In this document: positions 3,365-47,799 of the stretch, one piece after another | How positions within the stretch are numbered: the stretch's first letter is position 1 | Layout: each line of letters starts with the position of its first letter | The notes under the pieces: model-generated | What the model saw: only the letters and a program-made list of their open reading frames with translations | The model's database searches: none | What the model was told of the DNA's origin: nothing | DNA from: Candidatus Woesebacteria bacterium | GTDB lineage: Bacteria > Patescibacteriota > Microgenomatia > UBA12405 | DNA: 64,000 nt | Direction of reading: 5' to 3' | NCBI GenBank assembly: GCA_035402805.1 | Contig: DAONDY010000002.1 | Coordinates: forward strand, 49,801-113,800 | Made by a program: the position numbers and the translations under genes

Positions 3365-3886
3365 ATGAAAAACGGGAGAACCGAAATTAATGATGGTTTG
3401 TATTACGATGAGAGATCGGCTGGCGGACTGGTTTATAAAAAAGAAAATAATAAGATATTATGGCTTTTAATAAAAACTATTTCTAACTTTACCAGTGAAA
3501 AAAATAAAAAAAGAGAAAATGATGGAGCGGTTTATAAATTTCCAAAGGGTCATTTAAAAAAGGATGAGTTTTTGAAAGAGGCAGCGTTAAGAGAAGTTGA
3601 AGAAGAAGGCCGGGTCAAGGCAAAAATTGTCACCAAATTGGGATCGAATGATTATTTGATTTGGGATAAAGAACAAAAAAAGAAAATTATTAAGAAAGTG
3701 ACCTTTTTTTTAATGGAATATACTGAACAAAGTAATTTAAAATATTACGATACTGAAATGGTGTTAGAGAGAGAATGGTTTGAATTTGACGAAGCAAGTG
3801 AAAAACTAGCCTATGATAGCGAAAAAGTTTTACTTAAAAAGGCAAAGATTGAATTAGATAAAATATTAAAACCCCTCTGTCGATAA
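3365..3886 (+). CDS. NUDIX hydrolase
   Basis: Nudix box FPKGHLKKDEFLKEAALREVEEEGRV. The last 5 codons and the stop lie inside repeat copy A1. Confidence 0.7.
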   Translation: MKNGRTEINDGLYYDERSAGGLVYKKENNKILWLLIKTISNFTSEKNKKRENDGAVYKFPKGHLKKDEFLKEAALREVEEEGRVKAKIVTKLGSNDYLIWDKEQKKKIIKKVTFFLMEYTEQSNLKYYDTEMVLEREWFEFDEASEKLAYDSEKVLLKKAKIELDKILKPLCR

Positions 3887-3917
3887 ATCGACAGCTCCCC
3901 TTGATGAAAGGGAGCCA
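3869..3917 (+). repeat. Family A two-hairpin dispersed repeat, copy A1
   Basis: ctctgtcgataaatcgacag (hairpin 1) followed by ctccccttgatgaaagggag (hairpin 2). Matches the family consensus. Confidence 0.8.
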
Positions 3918-3941
3918 TATTTTTGATAAAATAGCCAAACT

Positions 3942-3958
3942 GGAGGAGTTGCCTAGTG
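3942..3958 (+). repeat. Duplicated fragment of the tRNA-Ser 5' end (acceptor plus D-arm start)
   Basis: ggaggagttgcctagtg is 16/17 identical to tRNA positions 1-17 (ggaggagtcgcctagtg at 4275-4291). Confidence 0.7.
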
Positions 3959-3960
3959 TC

Positions 3961-4010
3961 CCAAAGGGACCCCTTCGGGGTTCCAAAGGGACCCCTTCGG
4001 GGGTTTATGG
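3961..4010 (+). repeat. Tandem duplicated UUCG-tetraloop hairpins (terminator-like)
   Basis: ccaaagggaccccttcgggg occurs twice in tandem. Each unit forms a cccc-UUCG-gggg stem-loop; a ttt run follows the second. Confidence 0.55.
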
Positions 4011-4025
4011 CGCATAATTAATAAT

Positions 4026-4289
4026 ATGTATTACGTTTACGTATTATTAAATTGGAATAAAAAACATTGGTATATAGGATCGACACAAAATTTTGAGTCG
4101 AGACTTAAACATCATAACGATGGTTATACCTTTTCCACTAAGCCGTATAGGCCGTGGAAAATTGTACATTTAGAAAAATTTGATTCTAGAAAAGAGGCTT
4201 TTAAACGAGAAATGTTTTTAAAGTCTCCTTCTGGATATAAAGAATACTTATCTATTAAAGATAAAATATTAAATGGAGGAGTCGCCTAG
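4026..4289 (+). CDS. GIY-YIG nuclease family protein (small, UPF0213-like)
   Basis: YVYVLL..WYIGSTQNFESRLKHHN...PW; GIY-YIG core motifs. Confidence 0.75.
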   Translation: MYYVYVLLNWNKKHWYIGSTQNFESRLKHHNDGYTFSTKPYRPWKIVHLEKFDSRKEAFKREMFLKSPSGYKEYLSIKDKILNGGVA

Positions 4290-4361
4290 TGGTTCAGGGC
4301 ACAGACCTGGAAAGTCTGCGTTGTAAAAGACTCGTGGGTCCGAATCCCACCTCCTCCGCCA
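4275..4361 (+). tRNA. tRNA-Ser (anticodon GGA) with encoded CCA
   Basis: Acceptor stem GGAGGAG/CTCCTCC; 3-bp D stem; anticodon stem CAGAC/GTCTG with loop CTGGAAA (anticodon GGA); long variable arm; T arm GTGGG-TCCGAAT-CCCAC; discriminator G then CCA. Confidence 0.85.
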
Positions 4362-4369
4362 GAATGTTT

Positions 4370-4831
4370 TTATTTATCCATCCTGCCAACGTATTCTCCT
4401 TCTCTAGGAAAACCAGCTTTGTAATCTTCCAGTAGTTTTTTTGATAAAGCATGGGGAAATAAATTGTCGGGCAAATTATTGATGTCTAACCAAGTACACC
4501 AAACATCTCCGTCTGGATGTTGTGGATCGAGCCAATGTTCTAATTCTTCAAATTTATCAATATCACCAAGAATAAATAATTCGACACTGTGTTCATTTTC
4601 TTTTTCTGGAAATAAAAAGTCACGAATGTAAAGAATTTTTTTAAATTCAAATTTAGCTCCATTACATTCTTCGACTGTTTCTCTAATGCATCCTTCTAAA
4701 ATAGTTTCACCATATTCCAAATGTCCACCAAAATAATGATAATAATCATGTTTTTGACGATATTGGACTAATACTTTTTCATTTTTAATTACTACCAACC
4801 TCAATCGAACATTTATTTTATGATTTTCCAT
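4370..4831 (-). CDS. NUDIX hydrolase (cassette 1)
   Basis: Nudix box GGHLEYGETILEGCIRETVEECNG. Confidence 0.75.
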   Translation of the reverse strand: MENHKINVRLRLVVIKNEKVLVQYRQKHDYYHYFGGHLEYGETILEGCIRETVEECNGAKFEFKKILYIRDFLFPEKENEHSVELFILGDIDKFEELEHWLDPQHPDGDVWCTWLDINNLPDNLFPHALSKKLLEDYKAGFPREGEYVGRMDK

Positions 4832-4846
4832 AGACTTATTATATAT

Positions 4847-4900
4847 GAGTTATAAGGACAGAAAGTTTCCAGACTCAACTGCTCCACACTTCGTGTAATG
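4847..4900 (+). repeat. tRNA-3'-end-like direct repeat R1
   Basis: gagttataaggacagaaagtttccagactcaactgctcc; hairpin AGTT-tccagactc-AACT. Related to R2-R5 and to the tRNA 3' end. Confidence 0.7.
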
Positions 4901-4952
4901 TTTGAGTAGTTTAACTAAAATTTAAAAAAATAGTTAATTTATTTATCTTTAC

Positions 4953-5474: not shown

Positions 5475-6092
5475 ATGAAAATAATTCTTTTCCGTCATGG
5501 AGAAAAACAAAAAGTTGATTCTATAAACATAGATGATAAAAGAGCAGTAAATTTAACAGATTTTGGAATTATTCAAATAAATAAATTGGGAAAAATATTA
5601 TTAGAAAGATTTCCTATGTTAAATTTATCAAAGGTAATTTATTCAAGCCCTTATACCCGAGCAATTCAAAGTAGTGAGATTATTAAATCAATTTTAAATA
5701 TTAAAAATATTGTTATGGTTCCAGAATTTGGTGAATTTTATGCTTCTAATAATTACCAAAAACCCAAGGAGATTAGACAACAAATTCAAGAGATGGCAAT
5801 GCAAAATCCTGGTTGGATTTCACCAGAAACAAATTCTTCTTTAAATGATGAAATCTTAAAATTTAAAAATAAAATAAAAGAAATTTGTCTAAAAAATCAA
5901 GATGATTTGATTTTGATTTCAACTCATGGAGGAATTATTAGAAATACAGTTTATAGTCTTGAACCAAGATTAAGACCAGACAATAATGTAATTTTAGATT
6001 CAAAAATACATGAAGCTGGTTACACCGTCTTAGATTTTGATGGAAAAGATTTTAAAGTTAAAAAGTTTGATGTACATGATTATTTGGATTAG
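5475..6092 (+). CDS. Histidine phosphatase family protein (phosphoglycerate-mutase-like), cassette 3
   Basis: N-terminal LFRHGEK (RHG catalytic motif); a second His in STHGG. Confidence 0.7.
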   Translation: MKIILFRHGEKQKVDSINIDDKRAVNLTDFGIIQINKLGKILLERFPMLNLSKVIYSSPYTRAIQSSEIIKSILNIKNIVMVPEFGEFYASNNYQKPKEIRQQIQEMAMQNPGWISPETNSSLNDEILKFKNKIKEICLKNQDDLILISTHGGIIRNTVYSLEPRLRPDNNVILDSKIHEAGYTVLDFDGKDFKVKKFDVHDYLD

Positions 6093-6140
6093 GGTTATAG
6101 GGATAGAAAGGTTCTAGACTCACCTACTCCGCCAGAATGT
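6093..6140 (+). repeat. tRNA-3'-end-like direct repeat R3
   Basis: ggttatagggatagaaaggttctagactcacctactccgccagaatgt; hairpin AGGT-tctagactc-ACCT. The last 20 nt nearly match the tRNA 3' end plus downstream agaatgtt. Confidence 0.8.
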
Positions 6141-6809: not shown

Positions 6810-6831
6810 TAATGCTTAATTTTATCATTTT

Positions 6832-6875
6832 GAGTTATAGAGACATTAAGTTCCAGACTCACCTGTTTCGCACTT
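6832..6875 (+). repeat. tRNA-3'-end-like direct repeat R4
   Basis: gagttatagagacattaagttccagactcacctgtttcgcacttg. Confidence 0.7.
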
Positions 6876-6922
6876 GATAAAATGTGTCCGAGTAATTTTT
6901 AATTTTATTGATAAAATAGACG

Positions 6923-14234: not shown

Positions 14235-14798
14235 ATGAAATTGCTAATACATGCCTGTTGTGCAGATTGTCTATTAAAAATGGTGGAATCAATTAAATCA
14301 GAAAATAAATTTGATGAAATTCAGGTTTATTATTACAATCCAAATATTCATCCGAGATCAGAATATCAATCGAGATTAAAGGCAATACAATTAATGGTTG
14401 GTGATTTAAAAATGATAGTGGCTGATTGGAAACCAAGTGATTATTTTGAAGTTGTAAACCTCTCTCCGGATAAACCGGGATCTCTCCTTAACAAGGAGAG
14501 AAGTCTTCAAAAAGGGGTAAGATGTGAGAAATGTTGGAGGTTAAGATTAGAAAGGACGGCAAAGTTTGCAAAAGAAAATGGATTCGATGGTTTTAGCTCA
14601 ACATTATTAACAAGTGAATATCAAAATTCAGAAATGATTGAAAAAATTGGTGAAGAAATCTCCAAAAAATATAAAATTAAGTTTTTAATTCCTAAAAAGA
14701 TTTGTAAAAAATTAGAAACTAAGGGATTTTATAAACAAGTATTTTGCGGTTGCTGTTACTCCTTAGTAGAAAGGTTTGAAGAAAAGTTTAAGGGCTGA
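14235..14798 (+). CDS. queH: Epoxyqueuosine reductase QueH (DUF208), carrying an in-frame family A repeat insert
   Basis: LIHACCADC...CEKCWRLR...GFDGFSSTLL match DUF208/QueH Cys motifs. The repeat at 14459-14505 encodes NLSPDKPGSLLNKERSL. Confidence 0.7.
   Translation: MKLLIHACCADCLLKMVESIKSENKFDEIQVYYYNPNIHPRSEYQSRLKAIQLMVGDLKMIVADWKPSDYFEVVNLSPDKPGSLLNKERSLQKGVRCEKCWRLRLERTAKFAKENGFDGFSSTLLTSEYQNSEMIEKIGEEISKKYKIKFLIPKKICKKLETKGFYKQVFCGCCYSLVERFEEKFKG
14459..14505 (+). repeat. Family A repeat copy A3 (inside queH, in frame)
   Basis: cctctctccggataaaccgggatctctccttaacaaggagagaagtc. Confidence 0.8.
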
Positions 14799-36088: not shown

Positions 36089-36797
36089 AAATAAAATGCC
36101 AACAGATCCATTAAAAATCGCCATTAAGGGAAGCACTCAAGAACATTTACCAATAGAGGATATTATAGATGGGATTGTGATGTTAAAGGATGGTTCTTGT
36201 TCGATAGTTTTGAGCGTTTCTTCGGTCAATTTTGATTTATTATCAGAGCAAGAACAATCTGCTTTGGTTTTTGCTTATGGCGGAATTATAAATTCTCTAA
36301 ATTTTCCAATTCAAATTATTATCCAATCACACTCTAAAGATGTGAGCTCTTATCTAAAAAACTTGGAAAACATACAAGAAAAACAAGTCAATCCTCAGCT
36401 AAAAGAGAGAATTAAACAATATCGAAAATTTATAGAAGAAACGGTCAAGAAAAATAATGTGTTGTCTAAATCTTTTTATATTGCTGTTAGTTTTTCGACC
36501 TTAGAATTGGGAATCAAAAGTGGCGGAGTTAAAGGGGCAATGATGTTTTTGCCAAAAAACAAAAAACAGGAACTGCCTTTTACTAAAGAGTATATTTTAG
36601 AAAAGGCTAAAGCTAGTTTAGAACCAAAAAGAGATCATTTAGTTAGACTATTTTCAAGATTAGGACTGGAAATAGAACCATTAAACAATAAAAAATTGAT
36701 TGACCTTTTTTATAGAACTTACAATGAAGAAACAGCTATTAATCAAAAAATTCAAAACGTAAACTATCAAGCACCGGTAGTAAATGGAGAAAAATAA
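36075..36797 (+). CDS. Hypothetical T4SS-associated protein
   Basis: ORF between the VirB3-like and VirB4 genes on the same strand, with overlapping ends. Confidence 0.4.
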   Translation: MLIVKNKMPTDPLKIAIKGSTQEHLPIEDIIDGIVMLKDGSCSIVLSVSSVNFDLLSEQEQSALVFAYGGIINSLNFPIQIIIQSHSKDVSSYLKNLENIQEKQVNPQLKERIKQYRKFIEETVKKNNVLSKSFYIAVSFSTLELGIKSGGVKGAMMFLPKNKKQELPFTKEYILEKAKASLEPKRDHLVRLFSRLGLEIEPLNNKKLIDLFYRTYNEETAINQKIQNVNYQAPVVNGEK

Positions 36798-39207
36798 AAT
36801 GAAATTATTCAACAAAAAAACACCACCAGCAAATAATCCGACTCCAGTAAAAGAGAACGAAAATCAAAGAGATTTTACGTCTGGATTGGTAACAACCAAA
36901 GATATAATTGCCCCCGCCTCTTTAGAGGTAGATTTCAATCATATTAGAATTGACAATAAATATTACCGAACCTTATTTGTGGCAGCATATCCGAGATTTG
37001 TAGGGATTAATTGGCTGTCATCATTAATTAATTTTGATTCATCTTTAAACATTTCGATGTTTATTTATCCGACTGATGGAAAAGAAGTTTTAGATGATTT
37101 GAGAAGAAAAATTACGGAAATGGAGGCTGAATTGAGCACTGATATTCAAAGAGGAAGATTGATTAATCCAGCAACCCAAGCAAAATTGGAAGATGCCTTA
37201 AATTTACAAGCCAACTTGGTCAAAGGAGAGGAAAGATTTTTTCAATTCGGGCTTTATATCACGATAACCGCAGACACAGTGGCAGAATTGGATAGAACCA
37301 ATAAAAATTTAGAGGCAGCTTTAGGATCGCTTTTGATTGTGAGTAAAAGGGCCACTTTGCAAATGGAAGACGGTTTTATAACAACATTGCCAATTTGTCG
37401 AGATAAATTGTCGATTAGTCGAAACATGGATACAACATCTTTGGCAACAACTTTCCCTTTTGTATCTTCTGATTTATCCGATGATAGGGGTGTTATGTAT
37501 GGGGTTAATATGCACAATGGGTCGCTGGTTATTTTTGATCGATTTTCAATGCAAAATTACAATTCAGTAGTTTTTGCGACAGCCGGTGCTGGTAAGTCTT
37601 ATTTAATTAAACTGGAAGTGCTTCGATCATTAATGATGGGGACTGAAATTATTGTCATCGATCCAGAAAATGAATATAGAGAATTATGTGTTAGTTCTGG
37701 TGGTCAATATATTGCTTTTGGTTATGGAGAGGGTTCTAAAATTAATCCATTTGATTTAACTTTAGCCGAAGAAGAGGGTGAAAATGGTTTAAATACTAAA
37801 ATTCTATCGCTTCATAAATTATTAAAAGTAATGTTGGGAGAAATGGATCCAATCGAAGAGTCAATTATGGATAGAGCAATGATGGATACCTATAAAATGA
37901 AGGGTATTACACCAGACCCAGCAACTCAAAATAAGGAGGCACCACTAATCGAAGATTTATATAAATCACTGATTGGGATGGAAGATGAAAAGGCAAAGAG
38001 CTTGGCTGCTAGATTGGAAAAATATATCAAAGGATCTTTTGCTGGAATTTTTAACCAAAAAACAACAGTGGAGTTAAATAATAAATTTGTGGTTTTTGGA
38101 ATTAAAAATCTAGAAGACGTGTTGAGACCAGTGGCTATGCAAATTATTTTGGACTATATTTGGACGGTAGTTAAAAAGACACTTAAAAAGAGAATACTGG
38201 TGGTTGATGAGGCTTGGTATTTAATGCAACATGAAGATTCGGCAGAATTTTTAAGAGGAATTGTTAAGAGAGGAAGAAAATACTATTTAGGAGTAACAAC
38301 AATTACCCAAGATGTGGATGATTTCTTGGAAACTGCCTATGGTAAGGAAATTGTTACTAATAGCGCAATCCAAATCTTATTAAAGCAACACAGTGCAGCA
38401 ATTGATCAAATTGGAGAAGTTTTTTATCTAAGTCAAGGGGAAAAACAGTTGTTATTATCGGCAAACAAGGGAGAAGGGATATTTTTTGCTGGACAAAATC
38501 ATGTGGCGATACAAGTAATTGCGTCAGAAGATGAACATAACTTAATTACATCGAATCCTGAGGATGTGTTAAAAAAACAAAATCTGTTGGGTAACTCCAA
38601 ACCAGATAATGGTTTTAAGGCGCCGATTCAAAATCCCTCTGTCAATAAATTGACATCTCCCTTTGATGAAAGGGAGAAATTAAAAATAGAAGAAGTTAAA
38701 AAAGTTGAAGTGGTACCTAAAATTAATATTCCAGAAATAAAAACCATAGAAATTGAAAACAAAATAAATAAACCGGTTGAACTTGAAGAAAAAAAGCCTT
38801 TAGTACCAGAAAATCAAATTAAACCAGAAATAAAAGATGAATCGGTTTTATTTAAAAAACCAGAAGTGGTAGTAATTCAAAACCCCTCAGTCCCCGATAA
38901 ATCAGTGACAGCTCCCCTTGATAAAAGGGAGCCATTAAAACTAGAAATAAATAAACCTGTTGAAATTAAAGTTGAAGAAGTTAAAAATGAAATCAAAAAA
39001 CCAATTTTTATAAAAAACGAGGAAAAGAGTATTCCCCAACCACCACAATTAAGCAAAAAACCACAACCAGTGTTTGACTTAAACCCACCTGCCCCCGTCG
39101 GGGCACCCTCCCTTGAAAATGGAGGGCAAAAAAATATAAGTGAAACGAAAAAAGATAATTCTGGAAAGATGGATTATGATAAATTGTTTGGTAACGGAAT
39201 AGTCTAG
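36784..39207 (+). CDS. virB4: VirB4/TrbE/CagE-like conjugation-type ATPase with a ~200-aa repeat-derived low-complexity C-terminal tail
   Basis: Walker A VFATAGAGKSYL; Walker B ILVVDEAWYLM; 807 aa. The tail contains repeats A5, A6 and A7. Confidence 0.85.
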   Translation: MEKNKMKLFNKKTPPANNPTPVKENENQRDFTSGLVTTKDIIAPASLEVDFNHIRIDNKYYRTLFVAAYPRFVGINWLSSLINFDSSLNISMFIYPTDGKEVLDDLRRKITEMEAELSTDIQRGRLINPATQAKLEDALNLQANLVKGEERFFQFGLYITITADTVAELDRTNKNLEAALGSLLIVSKRATLQMEDGFITTLPICRDKLSISRNMDTTSLATTFPFVSSDLSDDRGVMYGVNMHNGSLVIFDRFSMQNYNSVVFATAGAGKSYLIKLEVLRSLMMGTEIIVIDPENEYRELCVSSGGQYIAFGYGEGSKINPFDLTLAEEEGENGLNTKILSLHKLLKVMLGEMDPIEESIMDRAMMDTYKMKGITPDPATQNKEAPLIEDLYKSLIGMEDEKAKSLAARLEKYIKGSFAGIFNQKTTVELNNKFVVFGIKNLEDVLRPVAMQIILDYIWTVVKKTLKKRILVVDEAWYLMQHEDSAEFLRGIVKRGRKYYLGVTTITQDVDDFLETAYGKEIVTNSAIQILLKQHSAAIDQIGEVFYLSQGEKQLLLSANKGEGIFFAGQNHVAIQVIASEDEHNLITSNPEDVLKKQNLLGNSKPDNGFKAPIQNPSVNKLTSPFDEREKLKIEEVKKVEVVPKINIPEIKTIEIENKINKPVELEEKKPLVPENQIKPEIKDESVLFKKPEVVVIQNPSVPDKSVTAPLDKREPLKLEINKPVEIKVEEVKNEIKKPIFIKNEEKSIPQPPQLSKKPQPVFDLNPPAPVGAPSLENGGQKNISETKKDNSGKMDYDKLFGNGIV
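38631..38678 (+). repeat. Family A repeat copy A5 (inside the VirB4 tail, in frame)
   Basis: aaatccctctgtcaataaattgacatctccctttgatgaaagggagaa. Confidence 0.75.
38881..38931 (+). repeat. Family A repeat copy A6 (inside the VirB4 tail)
   Basis: aacccctcagtccccgataaatcagtgacagctccccttgataaaagggag. Confidence 0.7.
39087..39130 (+). repeat. Degenerate family A-like copy A7 (inside the VirB4 tail)
   Basis: cctgcccccgtcggggcaccctcccttgaaaatggagggc keeps the two-hairpin architecture. Confidence 0.5.
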
Positions 39208-44238: not shown

Positions 44239-44288
44239 ATCCCTCTTCCGCCGAAAGCGGATTTCCCCTTTTGATGAAAAGGAGACAA
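44239..44288 (+). repeat. Family A repeat copy A8 (variant)
   Basis: atccctcttccgccgaaagcggatttccccttttgatgaaaaggagac. Confidence 0.7.
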
Positions 44289-44400: not shown

Positions 44401-44450
44401 AAACCCCTTTGTCGATAAATCGACATCTCCCCTTGATGAAGGGGAGAAAT
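44401..44450 (+). repeat. Family A repeat copy A9
   Basis: aaacccctttgtcgataaatcgacatctccccttgatgaaggggagaaat. It produces the spurious N-terminal extension of the ORF called at 44349. Confidence 0.8.
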
Positions 44451-46551: not shown

Positions 46552-47799
46552 GTGTGGCTATTTCTGTTTTTACTTTTAATTCCAACTCAATTAGGTCGAC
46601 ATTTTTGGCCTGATTGGAGTTATGTGTTGGGAATTAGGGTTGATTACCTATCCCCTACTTTATATTTATTGGATTTGGTTTGGATTGGAATATTAGTTAA
46701 AAGTTTAAAGTCGAAAGTTGGTCAAATAAAAAACTTTTTTAATTTTAAAAATTTACTAATTTTGGGATTTATAGCGATAAATATCCTAATAGCAGTAAAT
46801 CCATGGGTGGCAGTTTATAAATGGCTTAGAATAGGGCAACTATTAATCAGTTTTTGGTATTTTAGAGAAAATAAAAAAATAATAAAAGAAAAGTTAATAA
46901 AAATCATTCCTTGTTGGATTGTTTTTGAAAGCTTATTGGCGGTGGCGCAAATAGCAAAGAATGGAAGTTTAAATGGGATTTTTTATTGGCTGGGGGAAAG
47001 AAGTTTTACTTTTAGCACGATTGGAATTGCTCAGATTTCAGTTTTAGGACGGGGTTTGATTAGGGCTTATGGAACTTTTTCACATCCGAATAGTTTGGCT
47101 GGATTTTTATTAGTAAGTTTGTTGTTGTGGTATTGGATAAAACCTCTCTGTCTCGATAAATCGAGACATCTCCCCTTAAAAAAGGGAGAAGTCTTTTTAA
47201 ATATTTTTTGGTGGGCGGTGTTTTGGTTGGGGTTATTGGGAATATTAGTTTCTGGAAGTAGAACTGTTTGGGTTTTAAAGTTAGGATTAATTTTATTTTT
47301 GGTTTTAAGGAATTTGAAAAATAAGAAAAACATTATTGGTTTTATTTTATTATTTTTGGGAGTAGTGGCTTTTGTCTTAAGATTGGTAAATATGGAATAT
47401 CATGTTTCAGATTTTTTGGGAGGGTGGGATTCTGATGGAATTGAAAAAAGAATCCAATTAAATATTTCCGGGTTAAAAATGATTAAAGAATCCCCTTGGT
47501 TTGGGGTGGGTTTAGGAAATTTTTTGGTAAGATTACCTGAATTTCAAAAAAATAATGGAATTTTTTGGCTACAGCCAGTACATAATATTTTAATTTTAGC
47601 TTTGAGCCAGGTGGGAATATTGGGACTAGTAATATTAATTTATAATTTTCGATTTCTAATTTTTGAAAATAAGAAAAGAGATAATTTTGTTTTTAAAATA
47701 ATTTTGGGAATAGTGATAATAACAGGAATGATGGATCATTATTGGCTGACGTTACCCCAAAATTGGTGGCTATTAACTTTGGTTTTGGGAATGATTTAA
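46552..47799 (+). CDS. O-antigen ligase-like (Wzy_C) membrane protein with an in-frame family A insert
   Basis: Polytopic, with a Wzy_C-like loop (GSRTVWV...). The repeat at 47141-47193 encodes KPLCLDKSRHLPLKKGEV. Confidence 0.6.
   Translation: MWLFLFLLLIPTQLGRHFWPDWSYVLGIRVDYLSPTLYLLDLVWIGILVKSLKSKVGQIKNFFNFKNLLILGFIAINILIAVNPWVAVYKWLRIGQLLISFWYFRENKKIIKEKLIKIIPCWIVFESLLAVAQIAKNGSLNGIFYWLGERSFTFSTIGIAQISVLGRGLIRAYGTFSHPNSLAGFLLVSLLLWYWIKPLCLDKSRHLPLKKGEVFLNIFWWAVFWLGLLGILVSGSRTVWVLKLGLILFLVLRNLKNKKNIIGFILLFLGVVAFVLRLVNMEYHVSDFLGGWDSDGIEKRIQLNISGLKMIKESPWFGVGLGNFLVRLPEFQKNNGIFWLQPVHNILILALSQVGILGLVILIYNFRFLIFENKKRDNFVFKIILGIVIITGMMDHYWLTLPQNWWLLTLVLGMI
47141..47193 (+). repeat. Family A repeat copy A11 (inside the CDS, in frame)
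   Basis: aacctctctgtctcgataaatcgagacatctccccttaaaaaagggagaagtc. Confidence 0.85.

Follow-up and report, generated by a model that had tools for sequence, protein, structure and literature searches.

Why does a gene for a small GIY-YIG nuclease lie between a complete tRNA-Ser gene and a second copy of that gene's 5′ end? The arrangement occupies positions 3927-4361 of the window, i.e., the whole 64-kb stretch of DNA that was analysed, and the initial annotation had attributed it to an element that inserted into or next to the tRNA gene and regenerated it or, alternatively, to the remnant of an older tRNA-Ser copy. Based on the comparisons reported here, we consider it fairly probable that a very small selfish nuclease cassette split the tRNA-Ser(GGA) gene of this region, that the gene was rebuilt as a whole copy, and that the cassette spreads by homing.

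The tRNA-Ser(GGA) gene and its displaced 5′ fragment

ARAGORN and Rfam identified a single tRNA at the locus, a whole tRNA-Ser(GGA) with encoded CCA at 4275-4361 on the + strand (54.8 bits). When the entire window was scanned with up to three mismatches, only two sites were found in 64 kb, GGAGGAGTTGCCTAGTG at 3942-3958 and GGAGGAGTCGCCTAGTG at 4275-4291. They are identical at 16 of 17 nucleotides, as originally described; the chance expectation for the pair was 0.03 and none of 100 shuffles gave two sites, which rules out a chance match. The duplicated segment is real, although it is longer than the 17 nt first recognized. Its first piece (3942-3958, + strand) corresponds to tRNA positions 1-17 and covers the 5′ strands of the acceptor stem and D-stem and the start of the D-loop. 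It is followed by two tandem copies of a GC-rich, 22-nt double hairpin, termed type B (3959-4002, + strand), and then by a second piece, GTTTATGGCGCA (4003-4014, + strand), which corresponds to positions 18-29 and covers the rest of the D-loop, the 3′ strand of the D-stem and the first bases of the anticodon stem. The left fragment therefore reads -10 box, tRNA 1-17, two double hairpins placed in the D-loop, and tRNA 18-29. GTTTATGGCGCA matches positions 18-29 of the tRNA in two relatives, L005 and L086, and not those of the window's own tRNA. The window locus was recovered base for base in two independent assemblies, one of which has a single hairpin unit. The proposal that 3942-4025 might fold as a tRNA-like RNA did not hold: neither ARAGORN nor Rfam returned a match there, and the stable fold of this interval (z = -4.0) is due to the hairpins.

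The 5′ flank that the two copies have in common, also remarked on at the outset, is a -10-like gaTAAAATa (3925-3933 and 4260-4268) located 7-9 nt before GGAGGAG. The left TAAAAT (3927-3932, + strand), with a TG before it, lies 9 nt 5′ of the pseudo-tRNA start in a promoter-like site at 3904-3932, and is presumably the original tRNA promoter, now orphaned. The right TAAAAT (4262-4267, + strand) lies inside the 3′ end of the nuclease ORF, 7 nt 5′ of the tRNA, at the place where the relative L001 has a perfect TATAAT, and is a possible promoter of the rebuilt tRNA.

The GIY-YIG gene and its predicted product

The nuclease ORF (4026-4289, + strand) has 87 codons and encodes a stand-alone, Slx1/UPF0213-like GIY-YIG domain that matched Pfam PF01541 over residues 1-69 (E 1.8e-15; 57.4 bits, cut-off 22.6). 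No Shine-Dalgarno sequence precedes it. Its last five codons (NGGVA) and its stop, TAG at 4287-4289, are made of tRNA nucleotides, in agreement with the 15-nt overlap reported earlier; the ORF, having no stop of its own, runs into the complete right-hand tRNA copy, so that the cell keeps a working tRNA. Translation of a leaderless mRNA from a promoter just 5′ of the ATG was considered and dropped, with a weak enrichment (17/87 vs 5% of control ATGs) and no clear box in the window. The ends of the GIY-YIG ORF and of the upstream NUDIX ORF contain an exact 15-nt repeat, AGATAAAATATTAAA.

Residues Y5, Y16, G18, R26, H30 and E62 were invariant in an alignment of 30 homologues. The AlphaFold2 model (pLDDT 94.7) places strands at residues 2-9, 15-20 and 44-52 and helices at 23-31, 55-66 and 71-83, i.e., the three-stranded sheet with flanking helices of the GIY-YIG fold. 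Foldseek searches with this model retrieved BH0048 and Slx1 at E-values of 4e-4 to 1e-2, with the UvrC N-terminal domain and I-TevI at E > 0.1; phmmer against the PDB gave 1ywl (E 1.2e-5) and 1zg2 (4.5e-4), followed by SLX1 chains. In NCBIfam, PADLOC and PHROGs nothing scored above threshold; the weaker matches were to the GIY motif of homing endonucleases. By sequence and predicted structure, the protein is a bare minimal domain that is nearer to UPF0213 and Slx1 than to UvrC or I-TevI. DNA-binding extensions of the homing-endonuclease type, which the initial annotation had proposed to look for, were absent, and beyond residues 1-69 of the 87-residue protein we found no DNA-binding module, only the one further helix at 71-83. 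The product is thus not a typical homing endonuclease, and recognition of a long site in the style of I-TevI or SegB is unlikely for such a bare domain.

The same slot in close relatives

Comparison of the tRNA-Ser(GGA) locus in relatives with and without the GIY-YIG gene gave the anticipated outcome, namely empty and occupied alleles. The slot between the NUDIX gene and tRNA-Ser was found empty, filled by the GIY-YIG gene, filled by a LAGLIDADG-fold ORF, or containing solo, hairpin-split pseudo-fragments. The GIY-YIG gene is missing from L086, L089, L092 and L093, and from L090 up to the end of its contig; in these relatives, whose NUDIX proteins are 66-90% identical, the NUDIX stop is followed by TATAAT and directly by tRNA-Ser(GGA). 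In L086, L089 and L092 the spacing from TATAAT to the tRNA equals that from the 3927-3932 box to the pseudo-tRNA. The cassette is present in the window, L001-L008, L104 and L105, with stacked fragments in L001/L003, while L087 and L094 carry solo hairpin-split fragments without an ORF. The left fragment of the occupied alleles takes the position of the tRNA in the empty ones, behind the conserved promoter, which indicates that the gene was split and that the whole copy is now the one on the right. This position supports insertion at the tRNA with regeneration of the latter.

Between the occupied L005 and the empty L086, the whole tRNA differs at nothing but its 3′ terminus; the other difference is confined to the flank upstream, where the hairpin interrupts the left copy. 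Insertion therefore did not obviously destroy a target within the tRNA. The tRNA of the window resembles that of L086 at both ends but not in its D-loop, anticodon stem or variable arm, and the left fragment is L086-like; with a D-arm allele of the L086/L005 type, the fragment was not newly copied from the window's own tRNA. This allele mosaic is consistent with co-conversion, and equally so with insertion at the hairpin position or with a later replacement from the 3′ side. The mosaic is real, but as other histories match it equally well, we do not treat co-conversion as proof of homing. The retained D-arm allele also agrees with the part of the initial annotation that saw a remnant of an older tRNA-Ser copy; a plain decaying duplicate, on the other hand, is contradicted by the recurrence of the arrangement described below.

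The locus had further been called an insertion hotspot on both sides, which was borne out. The LAGLIDADG-fold ORF of other relatives lies in the same 5′ slot, as would be expected for a homing site, and on the 3′ side of tRNA-Ser small cassettes are bounded by att-like repeats of the tRNA 3′ end, present in three copies. L003 and L100 encode large serine recombinases close to this tRNA.

Recurrence of the arrangement across phyla

We compared 80 homologous loci from Patescibacteria, Bacteroidota and other phyla. A co-oriented tRNA lies within 130 nt in 73/80 of them, and the far side of the ORF usually carries a partial, hairpin-interrupted copy of that tRNA, which is the 5′ part if the tRNA is downstream and the 3′ part if it is upstream. 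A far-side chained match to the tRNA with a score of at least 17 was obtained for 59/79 loci, compared to 12/474 mismatched controls (2.5%). The fragments usually match the adjoining tRNA perfectly across 20-36 nt, and loci differ widely in how long the fragment is and where the hairpin sits. ORF stops lie inside the tRNA, the offset taking fixed values (9, 14 or 22 nt). In the nuclease tree, proteins cluster by tRNA identity and side, with each clade bound to a single tRNA species, and the tRNA species used changes between lineages. Two loci (L040 and L068) contain tandem arrays in which fragment, palindrome and ORF occur twice before the tRNA. A whole tRNA on one side of the ORF and half a copy, broken by a hairpin, on the other are the rule for this protein family.

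At least 576 relatives of the GIY-YIG protein were found in species-representative genomes, while 2.9 million viral contigs of IMG/VR contained one match to the family, which leaves no obvious vector; on this single match, a phage origin was rejected. Most of the 80 loci have no recombinase gene in or beside the cassette.

Hairpins and palindromes

The type B units of the window (3959-3980 and 3981-4002) each consist of tcccaaaggga and ccccttcgggg. These two copies are the only ones in 64 kb, and assembly L105 has one. The pattern occurs only 5′ of Ser-GGA-clade GIY-YIG ORFs, invariably on the + strand, and is absent from loci without a GIY-YIG gene; type B is a cassette-specific element. A second double hairpin, the dispersed type A (cccctctgtcgataaatcgacag followed by ctccccttgatgaaagggag; 3871-3916, + strand), occurs six times in the window. 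The copy at the end of the NUDIX gene supplies its last codons and stop (KPLCR* in the window vs KK* in L086) and is missing from the empty L086 allele; type A is a neighbour of the cassette and lies outside it. A third hairpin type was found in L001, L087 and L094. A reading of GGAGAAGTCGCAccatCCTTCTCCGCCA in L001 as a 'minihelix' was dropped, since the sequence is better explained as tRNA positions 1-12 plus this third type, as in L087 and L094.

The 58 inserts of the pseudo-copies had a median GC of 0.65, compared to 0.40 for the loci; 44/58 had folds with z < -2 and 34/58 were located in the D-arm. Another element, the 20-nt palindrome CCTGCCTGCCGGCAGGCAGG, has 23 occurrences in 379 kb; 18 of them lie directly 5′ of a GIY-YIG start, and the other five are mostly within other pseudo-tRNA pieces. 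The possibility that the hairpins are a genome-wide repeat family was rejected for type B and for this palindrome; it holds for type A. Across the family, the hairpin type goes with the nuclease clade.

Discussion

The cassette is about 0.3 kb long, scarcely more than the 87-codon ORF, with almost no spacer before it. We infer from the sequence comparisons that it moves by nuclease-driven homing. The nuclease would break the cognate tRNA gene, or a site beside it, on a cassette-free chromosome, and repair of the break would copy the cassette, with the tRNA-derived flanks as homology arms. Function would be restored by partial duplication of the gene, not by splicing. The hairpin would be a cis element of the cassette, whose position may mark the point of insertion or cleavage; it could be a structure-specific substrate of the Slx1-like nuclease, or a block to repeat deletion and re-cleavage. 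Recombination between repeats would yield the tandem arrays and, together with ORF loss, the solo pseudo-fragments. Several observations speak against homing: the protein is a bare domain, the whole tRNA is nearly the same in an occupied and an empty allele, and viral contigs offer no obvious vector. Cassette proteins at the same locus are only 69-82% identical between genomes, so that much of the history there may be vertical, with losses. The same arrangement at many tRNA genes in distant phyla points to selfish DNA of a kind that is widespread and, it seems, not yet described. We are more hesitant about a broader proposal, which we lean against on balance, that these loci form a multi-phylum class of selfish elements in which a minimal Slx1-like nuclease, paired with its own GC-rich hairpin or palindrome, splits and rebuilds one specific tRNA gene, the hairpin at the non-functional junction in a tRNA loop being the structure-specific cis site for the nuclease.

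Mobility need not depend on the cassette's own nuclease. Homologous recombination on the tRNA arms after DNA uptake, or a site-specific, tRNA-gene-using recombinase acting in trans, might move the cassette, and the nuclease might have another job, such as cutting the extruded hairpin or palindrome, addiction or defence, or resolving branched DNA at the repeat. A fold nearest to UPF0213 and to the structure-specific nuclease Slx1 rather than to I-TevI, the lack of a DNA-binding extension, and hairpins that are strictly cassette-linked and follow the nuclease clade are all in line with such passive movement, as are the large serine recombinases that L003 and L100 encode nearby, the att-like repeats on the 3′ side of this tRNA and the tRNA sequence shared by one occupied and one empty allele. 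We nevertheless regard it as rather unlikely: the cassette neither contains nor adjoins a recombinase gene at most of the 80 loci, recombinases acting at tRNA genes generate a copy of the 3′ part and here it is the 5′ part, and the catalytic residues kept in several hundred relatives, together with the tight match between clade and tRNA, suggest that the nuclease links cassette and tRNA. Fragments that usually match the adjoining tRNA perfectly over 20-36 nt, next to structured, clade-specific hairpins of fixed orientation, could also be read as a guide or scaffold RNA, transcribed from the retained orphan promoter, that would lead a nuclease without a DNA-binding domain to its cognate tRNA gene, much as in OMEGA or TnpB-type elements. 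This is extremely improbable, given that a single domain of 87 residues would be very little for an RNA-guided DNA-cleaving enzyme, both the length of the fragment and the place of the hairpin are highly variable, the fragment lies downstream of the ORF at 3′-type loci, the window fragment is unlike its own tRNA, and duplication is the simpler account of the identity.

Two further explanations dispense with mobility. Co-transcribed with the tRNA, the nuclease might serve the host in processing or quality control of tRNA or other RNA, with the pseudo-tRNA and hairpin as a regulatory leader. The gene is invariably co-oriented with and abutting a tRNA, its stop inside the tRNA means that RNase P processing would compete with translation, and a 2006 survey described a prokaryotic Slx1-like domain fused to a TrmH-type tRNA methyltransferase and suggested a role in RNA (PMC1564403). 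We consider this very unlikely, as close relatives lack the gene at the same tRNA, some loci have it twice in tandem and others keep a remnant without the ORF, the tRNA species changes by lineage, and the window fragment mismatches its own tRNA; all these traits are more typical of a dispensable selfish element. Alternatively, the left fragment, which is truncated, mismatched, interrupted and of a different allele, might be what is left of a normal tandem duplication of tRNA-Ser, between whose copies an unrelated small gene lies by accident. It is highly improbable that accident accounts for an architecture that recurs in 59/79 loci, at many different tRNAs and in several phyla, against 2.5% of controls, with cassette-specific hairpin inserts and a stereotyped overlap of ORF and tRNA.

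If a split and rebuilt tRNA gene with homing is the correct reading, the small 'GIY-YIG nuclease family protein' genes of Patescibacteria, Bacteroidota and other phyla would be tRNA-gene parasites rather than housekeeping genes, forming a coherent family with a simple, recognizable anatomy that accounts for the pseudo-tRNA fragments and GC-rich palindromes beside tRNA genes. One tRNA slot would be contested by two unrelated nuclease families, and targeting by an 80-residue nuclease, through sequence, DNA structure or a partner, would be open to direct test. If the hairpin is a cis site, mobility would follow a mechanism unlike classical homing, which reads DNA sequence. The findings would also bear on why plasticity in very small genomes is concentrated at tRNA genes and, for annotation, on ORFs that end inside tRNAs and fragments that could be miscalled.

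Comparison with known systems

In the searchable literature, which omits most subscription journals, we found no description of a tRNA-linked GIY-YIG cassette. SegB of phage T4, a precedent for homing at tRNA genes, is a free-standing GIY-YIG homing endonuclease encoded in a tRNA gene cluster; its recognition site includes the conserved T-psi-C stem-loop motif of tRNA, and it is inherited preferentially along with the flanking tRNA genes (PMC2330249). The window cassette is similar in being a GIY-YIG nuclease gene among tRNA genes, but SegB is phage-borne, whereas the window family has one match in 2.9 million viral contigs, and SegB is not known to show the half-tRNA duplication or the hairpin inserts. 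SegB is more than twice as long as the window protein and has a DNA-binding region. Unlike I-TevI-type enzymes, the window protein is nearer to Slx1/UPF0213, and the domains closest to it by sequence and fold are of this kind; they include EF2693 and BH0048, stand-alone Slx1/UPF0213 GIY-YIG domains. Slx1 itself requires Slx4 and cuts branched DNA. The minimal domain has been described as a prokaryotic Slx1-like group, in a survey that records no link to tRNA genes (PMC1564403).

Group I introns carrying homing endonuclease genes are found in tRNA genes of bacteria, Patescibacteria among them, according to a report that mentions neither GIY-YIG genes nor tRNA fragments (PMC13011429). They resemble the cassette as mobile, nuclease-associated insertions in a tRNA gene of the same phylum. 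An intron was rejected as an explanation of the window locus, since an Rfam search of 3700-4600 with an E-value ceiling of 10 gave no intron family or ribozyme, and the tRNA at 4275-4361 is uninterrupted, so that function is restored via duplication, unlike intron splicing.

Integrase-borne islands and prophages use a tRNA gene as a safe landing site, where a direct repeat flanks the insert and the whole tRNA is regenerated. The partial-tRNA repeat and regenerated tRNA are shared with the cassette, and the 3′ side of the same tRNA shows the integrase pattern. In contrast to islands, which duplicate the 3′ part, the cassette repeat is the 5′ part (positions 1-29), and the insert is about 0.3 kb with a sole ORF of 87 codons and without a tyrosine or serine recombinase.

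In fungal mitochondria, free-standing GIY-YIG ORFs enter a gene and supply it with a new end, as in the Allomyces atp6 insertion, and GC-rich double hairpins lie nearby. The parallel with the window is that a partial duplicate keeps the invaded gene functional, the displaced piece becomes a pseudogene, and GC-rich double hairpins accompany the insertion; papers on mitochondrial genomes refer to such double hairpins of Allomyces. The mitochondrial ORFs have organellar protein-coding targets and larger enzymes, whereas the window family occupies bacterial chromosomal tRNA genes, duplicates either half of the gene and places its hairpins within the loops of the pseudo-tRNA. If our reading is correct, the cassette would be a bacterial chromosomal counterpart of this organellar strategy, in which the invader supplies a spare part for the gene it enters.

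Partial tRNA copy and GIY-YIG gene at tRNA-Ser(GGA)

The window (32% G+C; source genome Candidatus Woesebacteria) contains a single tRNA gene in 64 kb, tRNA-Ser(GGA) at 4275-4361, called by ARAGORN and confirmed by Rfam (54.8 bits). Its T-loop (within 4336-4350) reads TCCGAAT, with C where U55 is expected, as does that of L093, a locus from another genome; the usual reading is TTCGAAT, and U55 is near-universal. The initial annotation placed a GIY-YIG gene between this tRNA and a duplicate of its 5' end, proposing an insertion or a remnant of an older copy. The likeness is real: 3942-3958 matches the first 17 tRNA bases at all but one position, and no further match to this 17-mer at ≤3 mismatches occurs in the 64 kb, the chance expectation being 0.03. 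Residues 1-69 of the 87 encoded by the ORF at 4026-4289 form a GIY-YIG domain (Pfam E 1.8e-15), and the ORF product shares 100% identity with a protein named from a Candidatus Woesebacteria genome. The overlap described between ORF and tRNA was borne out by the coordinates, tRNA bases 1-15 doubling as the final five codons and stop.

The fragment itself is longer than the 17-mer originally noted. A -10-like box, TAAAAT, with TG upstream (3927-3932) lies ahead of the 17-mer, which is followed directly by two tandem 22-nt units, tcccaaaggga+ccccttcgggg (3959-4002), and by GTTTATGGCGCA (4003-4014), the tRNA-Ser D-arm continuation (positions 18-29) in the allele of L005 and L086. The left copy thus spans tRNA 1-29, its D-loop interrupted by a hairpin insert. 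The window's own tRNA reads GTTCAGGGCACA at positions 18-29, unlike the fragment, which thus has a separate history from the adjoining tRNA. A tRNA-like fold of this region, for which the initial annotation proposed a test, did not emerge: neither ARAGORN nor Rfam detected a tRNA-like RNA there; the fold is stable (z = -4.0), and the hairpins account for its stability. The region is base-for-base identical in two independent assemblies (L104, L105), except that L105 has one 22-nt hairpin unit (1457-1478) instead of the two at window 3959-4002; elsewhere L105 matches across the 181 nt compared, and its GIY-YIG protein is also identical. Either copy-number polymorphism or collapse during assembly explains the single unit.

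The structure model of the protein consists of one confident GIY-YIG domain and a single C-terminal helix. By sequence and fold, its nearest solved relatives are the UPF0213 proteins EF2693 and BH0048 and the Slx1 nuclease domain, UvrC and I-TevI being more distant. It carries no DNA-binding extension, a feature typical of homing endonucleases that the initial annotation had raised. A 2006 survey of the superfamily described prokaryotic stand-alone GIY-YIG domains as Slx1-like and minimal, and tRNA genes go unmentioned for them there (PMC1564403).

Empty and occupied alleles in relatives

Comparison with related tRNA-Ser(GGA) loci, as had been suggested, revealed both empty and occupied alleles. 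The syntenic gene order is rubrerythrin, cytidylyltransferase, NUDIX, a variable slot, tRNA-Ser(GGA) and then variable genes, and slot occupancy falls into four states. In the empty alleles (L086, L089, L092, L093), gaTATAATatcgtacctaa lies between the NUDIX stop and the tRNA; the L086 NUDIX is 90% identical to that of the window. L090 has the same empty junction on a contig that stops inside the tRNA. No GIY-YIG gene was found by tblastn in these five loci, and the cassette is dispensable. GIY-YIG-occupied alleles comprise the window, L104/L105, L001-L004 (protein 75% identical), L005 (82%) and L006-L008, laid out as promoter, tRNA 1-17, 22-nt GC-rich double hairpin (type B), further tRNA, ORF and whole tRNA. 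Their left fragment occupies the position that the tRNA has in empty alleles, downstream of the conserved promoter, so the gene was split and the whole copy lies to its right; tRNA genes have been split and rebuilt.

L005 has an additional hairpin-split fragment between ORF and tRNA, and L001 and L003 carry an older fragment stacked farther upstream of the cassette. L087 and L094 contain hairpin-split pseudo-5' parts without any ORF, which look like remnants left by ORF loss. A third hairpin type (cc.tccttc..cgcca...) splits pseudo-5' tRNA-Ser parts at L087 3320-3389, L094 3058-3180 and L001 2848-2924; such fragments stand either by themselves upstream of the tRNA, with no nuclease gene, or stacked upstream of a GIY-YIG cassette, and look like fossils of earlier invasions. 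A slot in which two unrelated nuclease folds (GIY-YIG and, in other relatives, LAGLIDADG) alternate with empty alleles has the appearance of a homing site.

A family-wide arrangement

Scanning one genome per species yielded at least 576 relatives, of which the best 80 were inspected; these belong to Patescibacteria, Bacteroidota, Ignavibacteria/Melioribacteraceae, Chloroflexota and others. A co-oriented tRNA lies within 130 nt of the ORF, immediately downstream or immediately upstream, in 73 of the 80 loci, the species used being Ser (GGA/GCT/TGA/CGA), Arg (TCT/ACG/CCT), Ala, Asn, Tyr, Pro, Gln, Glu, Cys, Phe and Leu. Loci with a downstream tRNA have its 5' part, from position 1 on, duplicated just upstream of the ATG, and loci with an upstream tRNA have its 3' part duplicated downstream of the ORF. 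Chained-match scores reached ≥17 in 59/79 loci vs 12/474 mismatched tRNA/flank pairs. Most ORFs lack a stop of their own and end 9, 14 or 22 nt into the tRNA, which accounts for the G-G/E-V-A/G tails in the protein alignment. In a neighbour-joining tree of catalytic cores, the proteins group by tRNA identity and side, with several tRNA-specific clades inside one phylum and a few switches; nuclease clades are specific to tRNA species.

Both arrays and remnants of cassettes exist. L040 and L068 contain fragment, palindrome and ORF twice before the tRNA. L026 (1673-2497) has three tandem 249-nt units ahead of an intact tRNA-Ser(TGA), in each of which a promoter-like flank leads into tRNA 1-36, then a 36-nt double hairpin located in the anticodon loop, then a degenerate 3' part. 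Downstream of the intact tRNA come the GIY-YIG ORF and another pseudo-copy. A second, divergent GIY-YIG gene (81 residues, different clade) occurs at L003 1045-1290 and L006 2945-3190, ~120 nt downstream of the same tRNA-Ser(GGA), so one tRNA can bear nuclease cassettes on both sides; the tRNA-Pro of L010 is likewise flanked. In L003 the GTTCCAGACTCAC boundary motif follows the second gene.

Inserts of at least 16 nt in the pseudo-copies (n=58; median 28 nt) have a G+C of 0.65 vs 0.40 for the loci, and z fell below -2 in 44/58 folds. Of these, 34/58 sit in the D-arm and 9/58 in the anticodon loop, and others in the T-arm. Hairpin type tracks nuclease clade: the Arg/Asn/Phe clades have a 20-nt perfect palindrome, CCTGCCTGCCGGCAGGCAGG, the Ser-GCT and related clades have 'TC-stem-GA' double hairpins, and the Ser-GGA clade has type B. 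In the pseudo-tRNA-Arg fragment of L021 (2369-2468), the usual palindrome has grown into a (CCTG)n tract of ~100 nt. Of 23 copies of the palindrome in 379 kb, 18 precede a GIY-YIG start by no more than 120 nt, and most others are within other pseudo-tRNA pieces. The type-B pattern occurs in 15/105 loci, its placed matches lying upstream of a Ser-GGA-clade ORF and always on the ORF strand, with a second match just beyond the ORF in L049; none was found in GIY-less alleles among the 105 loci. These distributions rule out general genome repeats. In both layouts the hairpin is within the non-functional copy and the opposite junction is seamless. The hairpin-to-ATG distance is steady (about 13-46 nt) and the tRNA coordinate of the hairpin varies (9/10, 12-17, 20-23), hence the hairpin is part of the cassette, to which it is firmly linked.

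Other repeats in the window

The boundary motif gagttataRRgacA..AGTTCCAGACTCACC..CTCCGC(CA), a degenerate copy of the tRNA T-arm and acceptor 3' end, occurs three times 3' of the tRNA (4845-4912, 6090-6139, 6830-6905). The copy at 6107-6139 retains CTCCGCCAgaatgtt, as at 4353-4368, and CGCacttcgtgtattgttcgagtaattt, which directly follows the tRNA in L087 and L001, is displaced to 4884-4912 and 6856-6905. The pattern resembles a stack of three small cassettes at the 3' end of the tRNA, which have att-like repeats and contain no recombinase; large serine recombinases are encoded nearby in L003 and L100. A separate dispersed double-hairpin family (type A; consensus cccctctgtcgataaatcgacatctccccttgatgaaagggaga) has covarying stems and copies at 3871-3916, 14458-14503, 38634-38678, 44240-44286, 44403-44448 and 47143-47190. 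Several lie inside long mechanical ORFs (36784-39207, 46552-47799), and one supplies the NUDIX C-terminus and stop. The family may represent palindromic elements inserted in frame, such as are known from Rickettsia. The NUDIX and GIY-YIG ORFs share an exact 15-nt repeat, AGATAAAATATTAAA, at their 3' ends (3856-3870 and 4259-4273, respectively), which encodes DKIL in both copies and contains a -10-like TAAAAT; it may be a relic of insertion history or a coincidence in AT-rich sequence.

Possible mechanism

We propose that the nuclease would break its cognate tRNA gene, or the junction of that gene, in a naive chromosome, that repair would copy the cassette by way of the tRNA-derived arms, and that recombination between repeats would give arrays and solo fragments. 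A minimal GIY-YIG domain is unlikely to read a long DNA sequence, and because the tRNA is unaltered in occupied alleles, self-immunity is left unexplained. Structure-specific action on the hairpin, instead of sequence reading, is an attractive alternative, favoured by the Slx1 affinity of the nuclease. As for expression of the nuclease, the stop codon is inside the tRNA, so RNase P cutting would turn a read-through transcript into a non-stop mRNA, and this could hold the nuclease level low.

Comparison with known systems

The window locus is unexceptional within a family-wide pattern that has apparently gone undescribed; no description of the tRNA/GIY-YIG cassette association was found in the full-text literature searched. 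The nearest precedents include those organellar GIY-YIG ORFs that come with a spare gene end, and islands inserted into tRNA genes by the integrases they carry. T4 SegB is another (PMC2330249). Group I introns in Patescibacteria tRNA genes (PMC13011429) are different from the GIY-YIG cassette.
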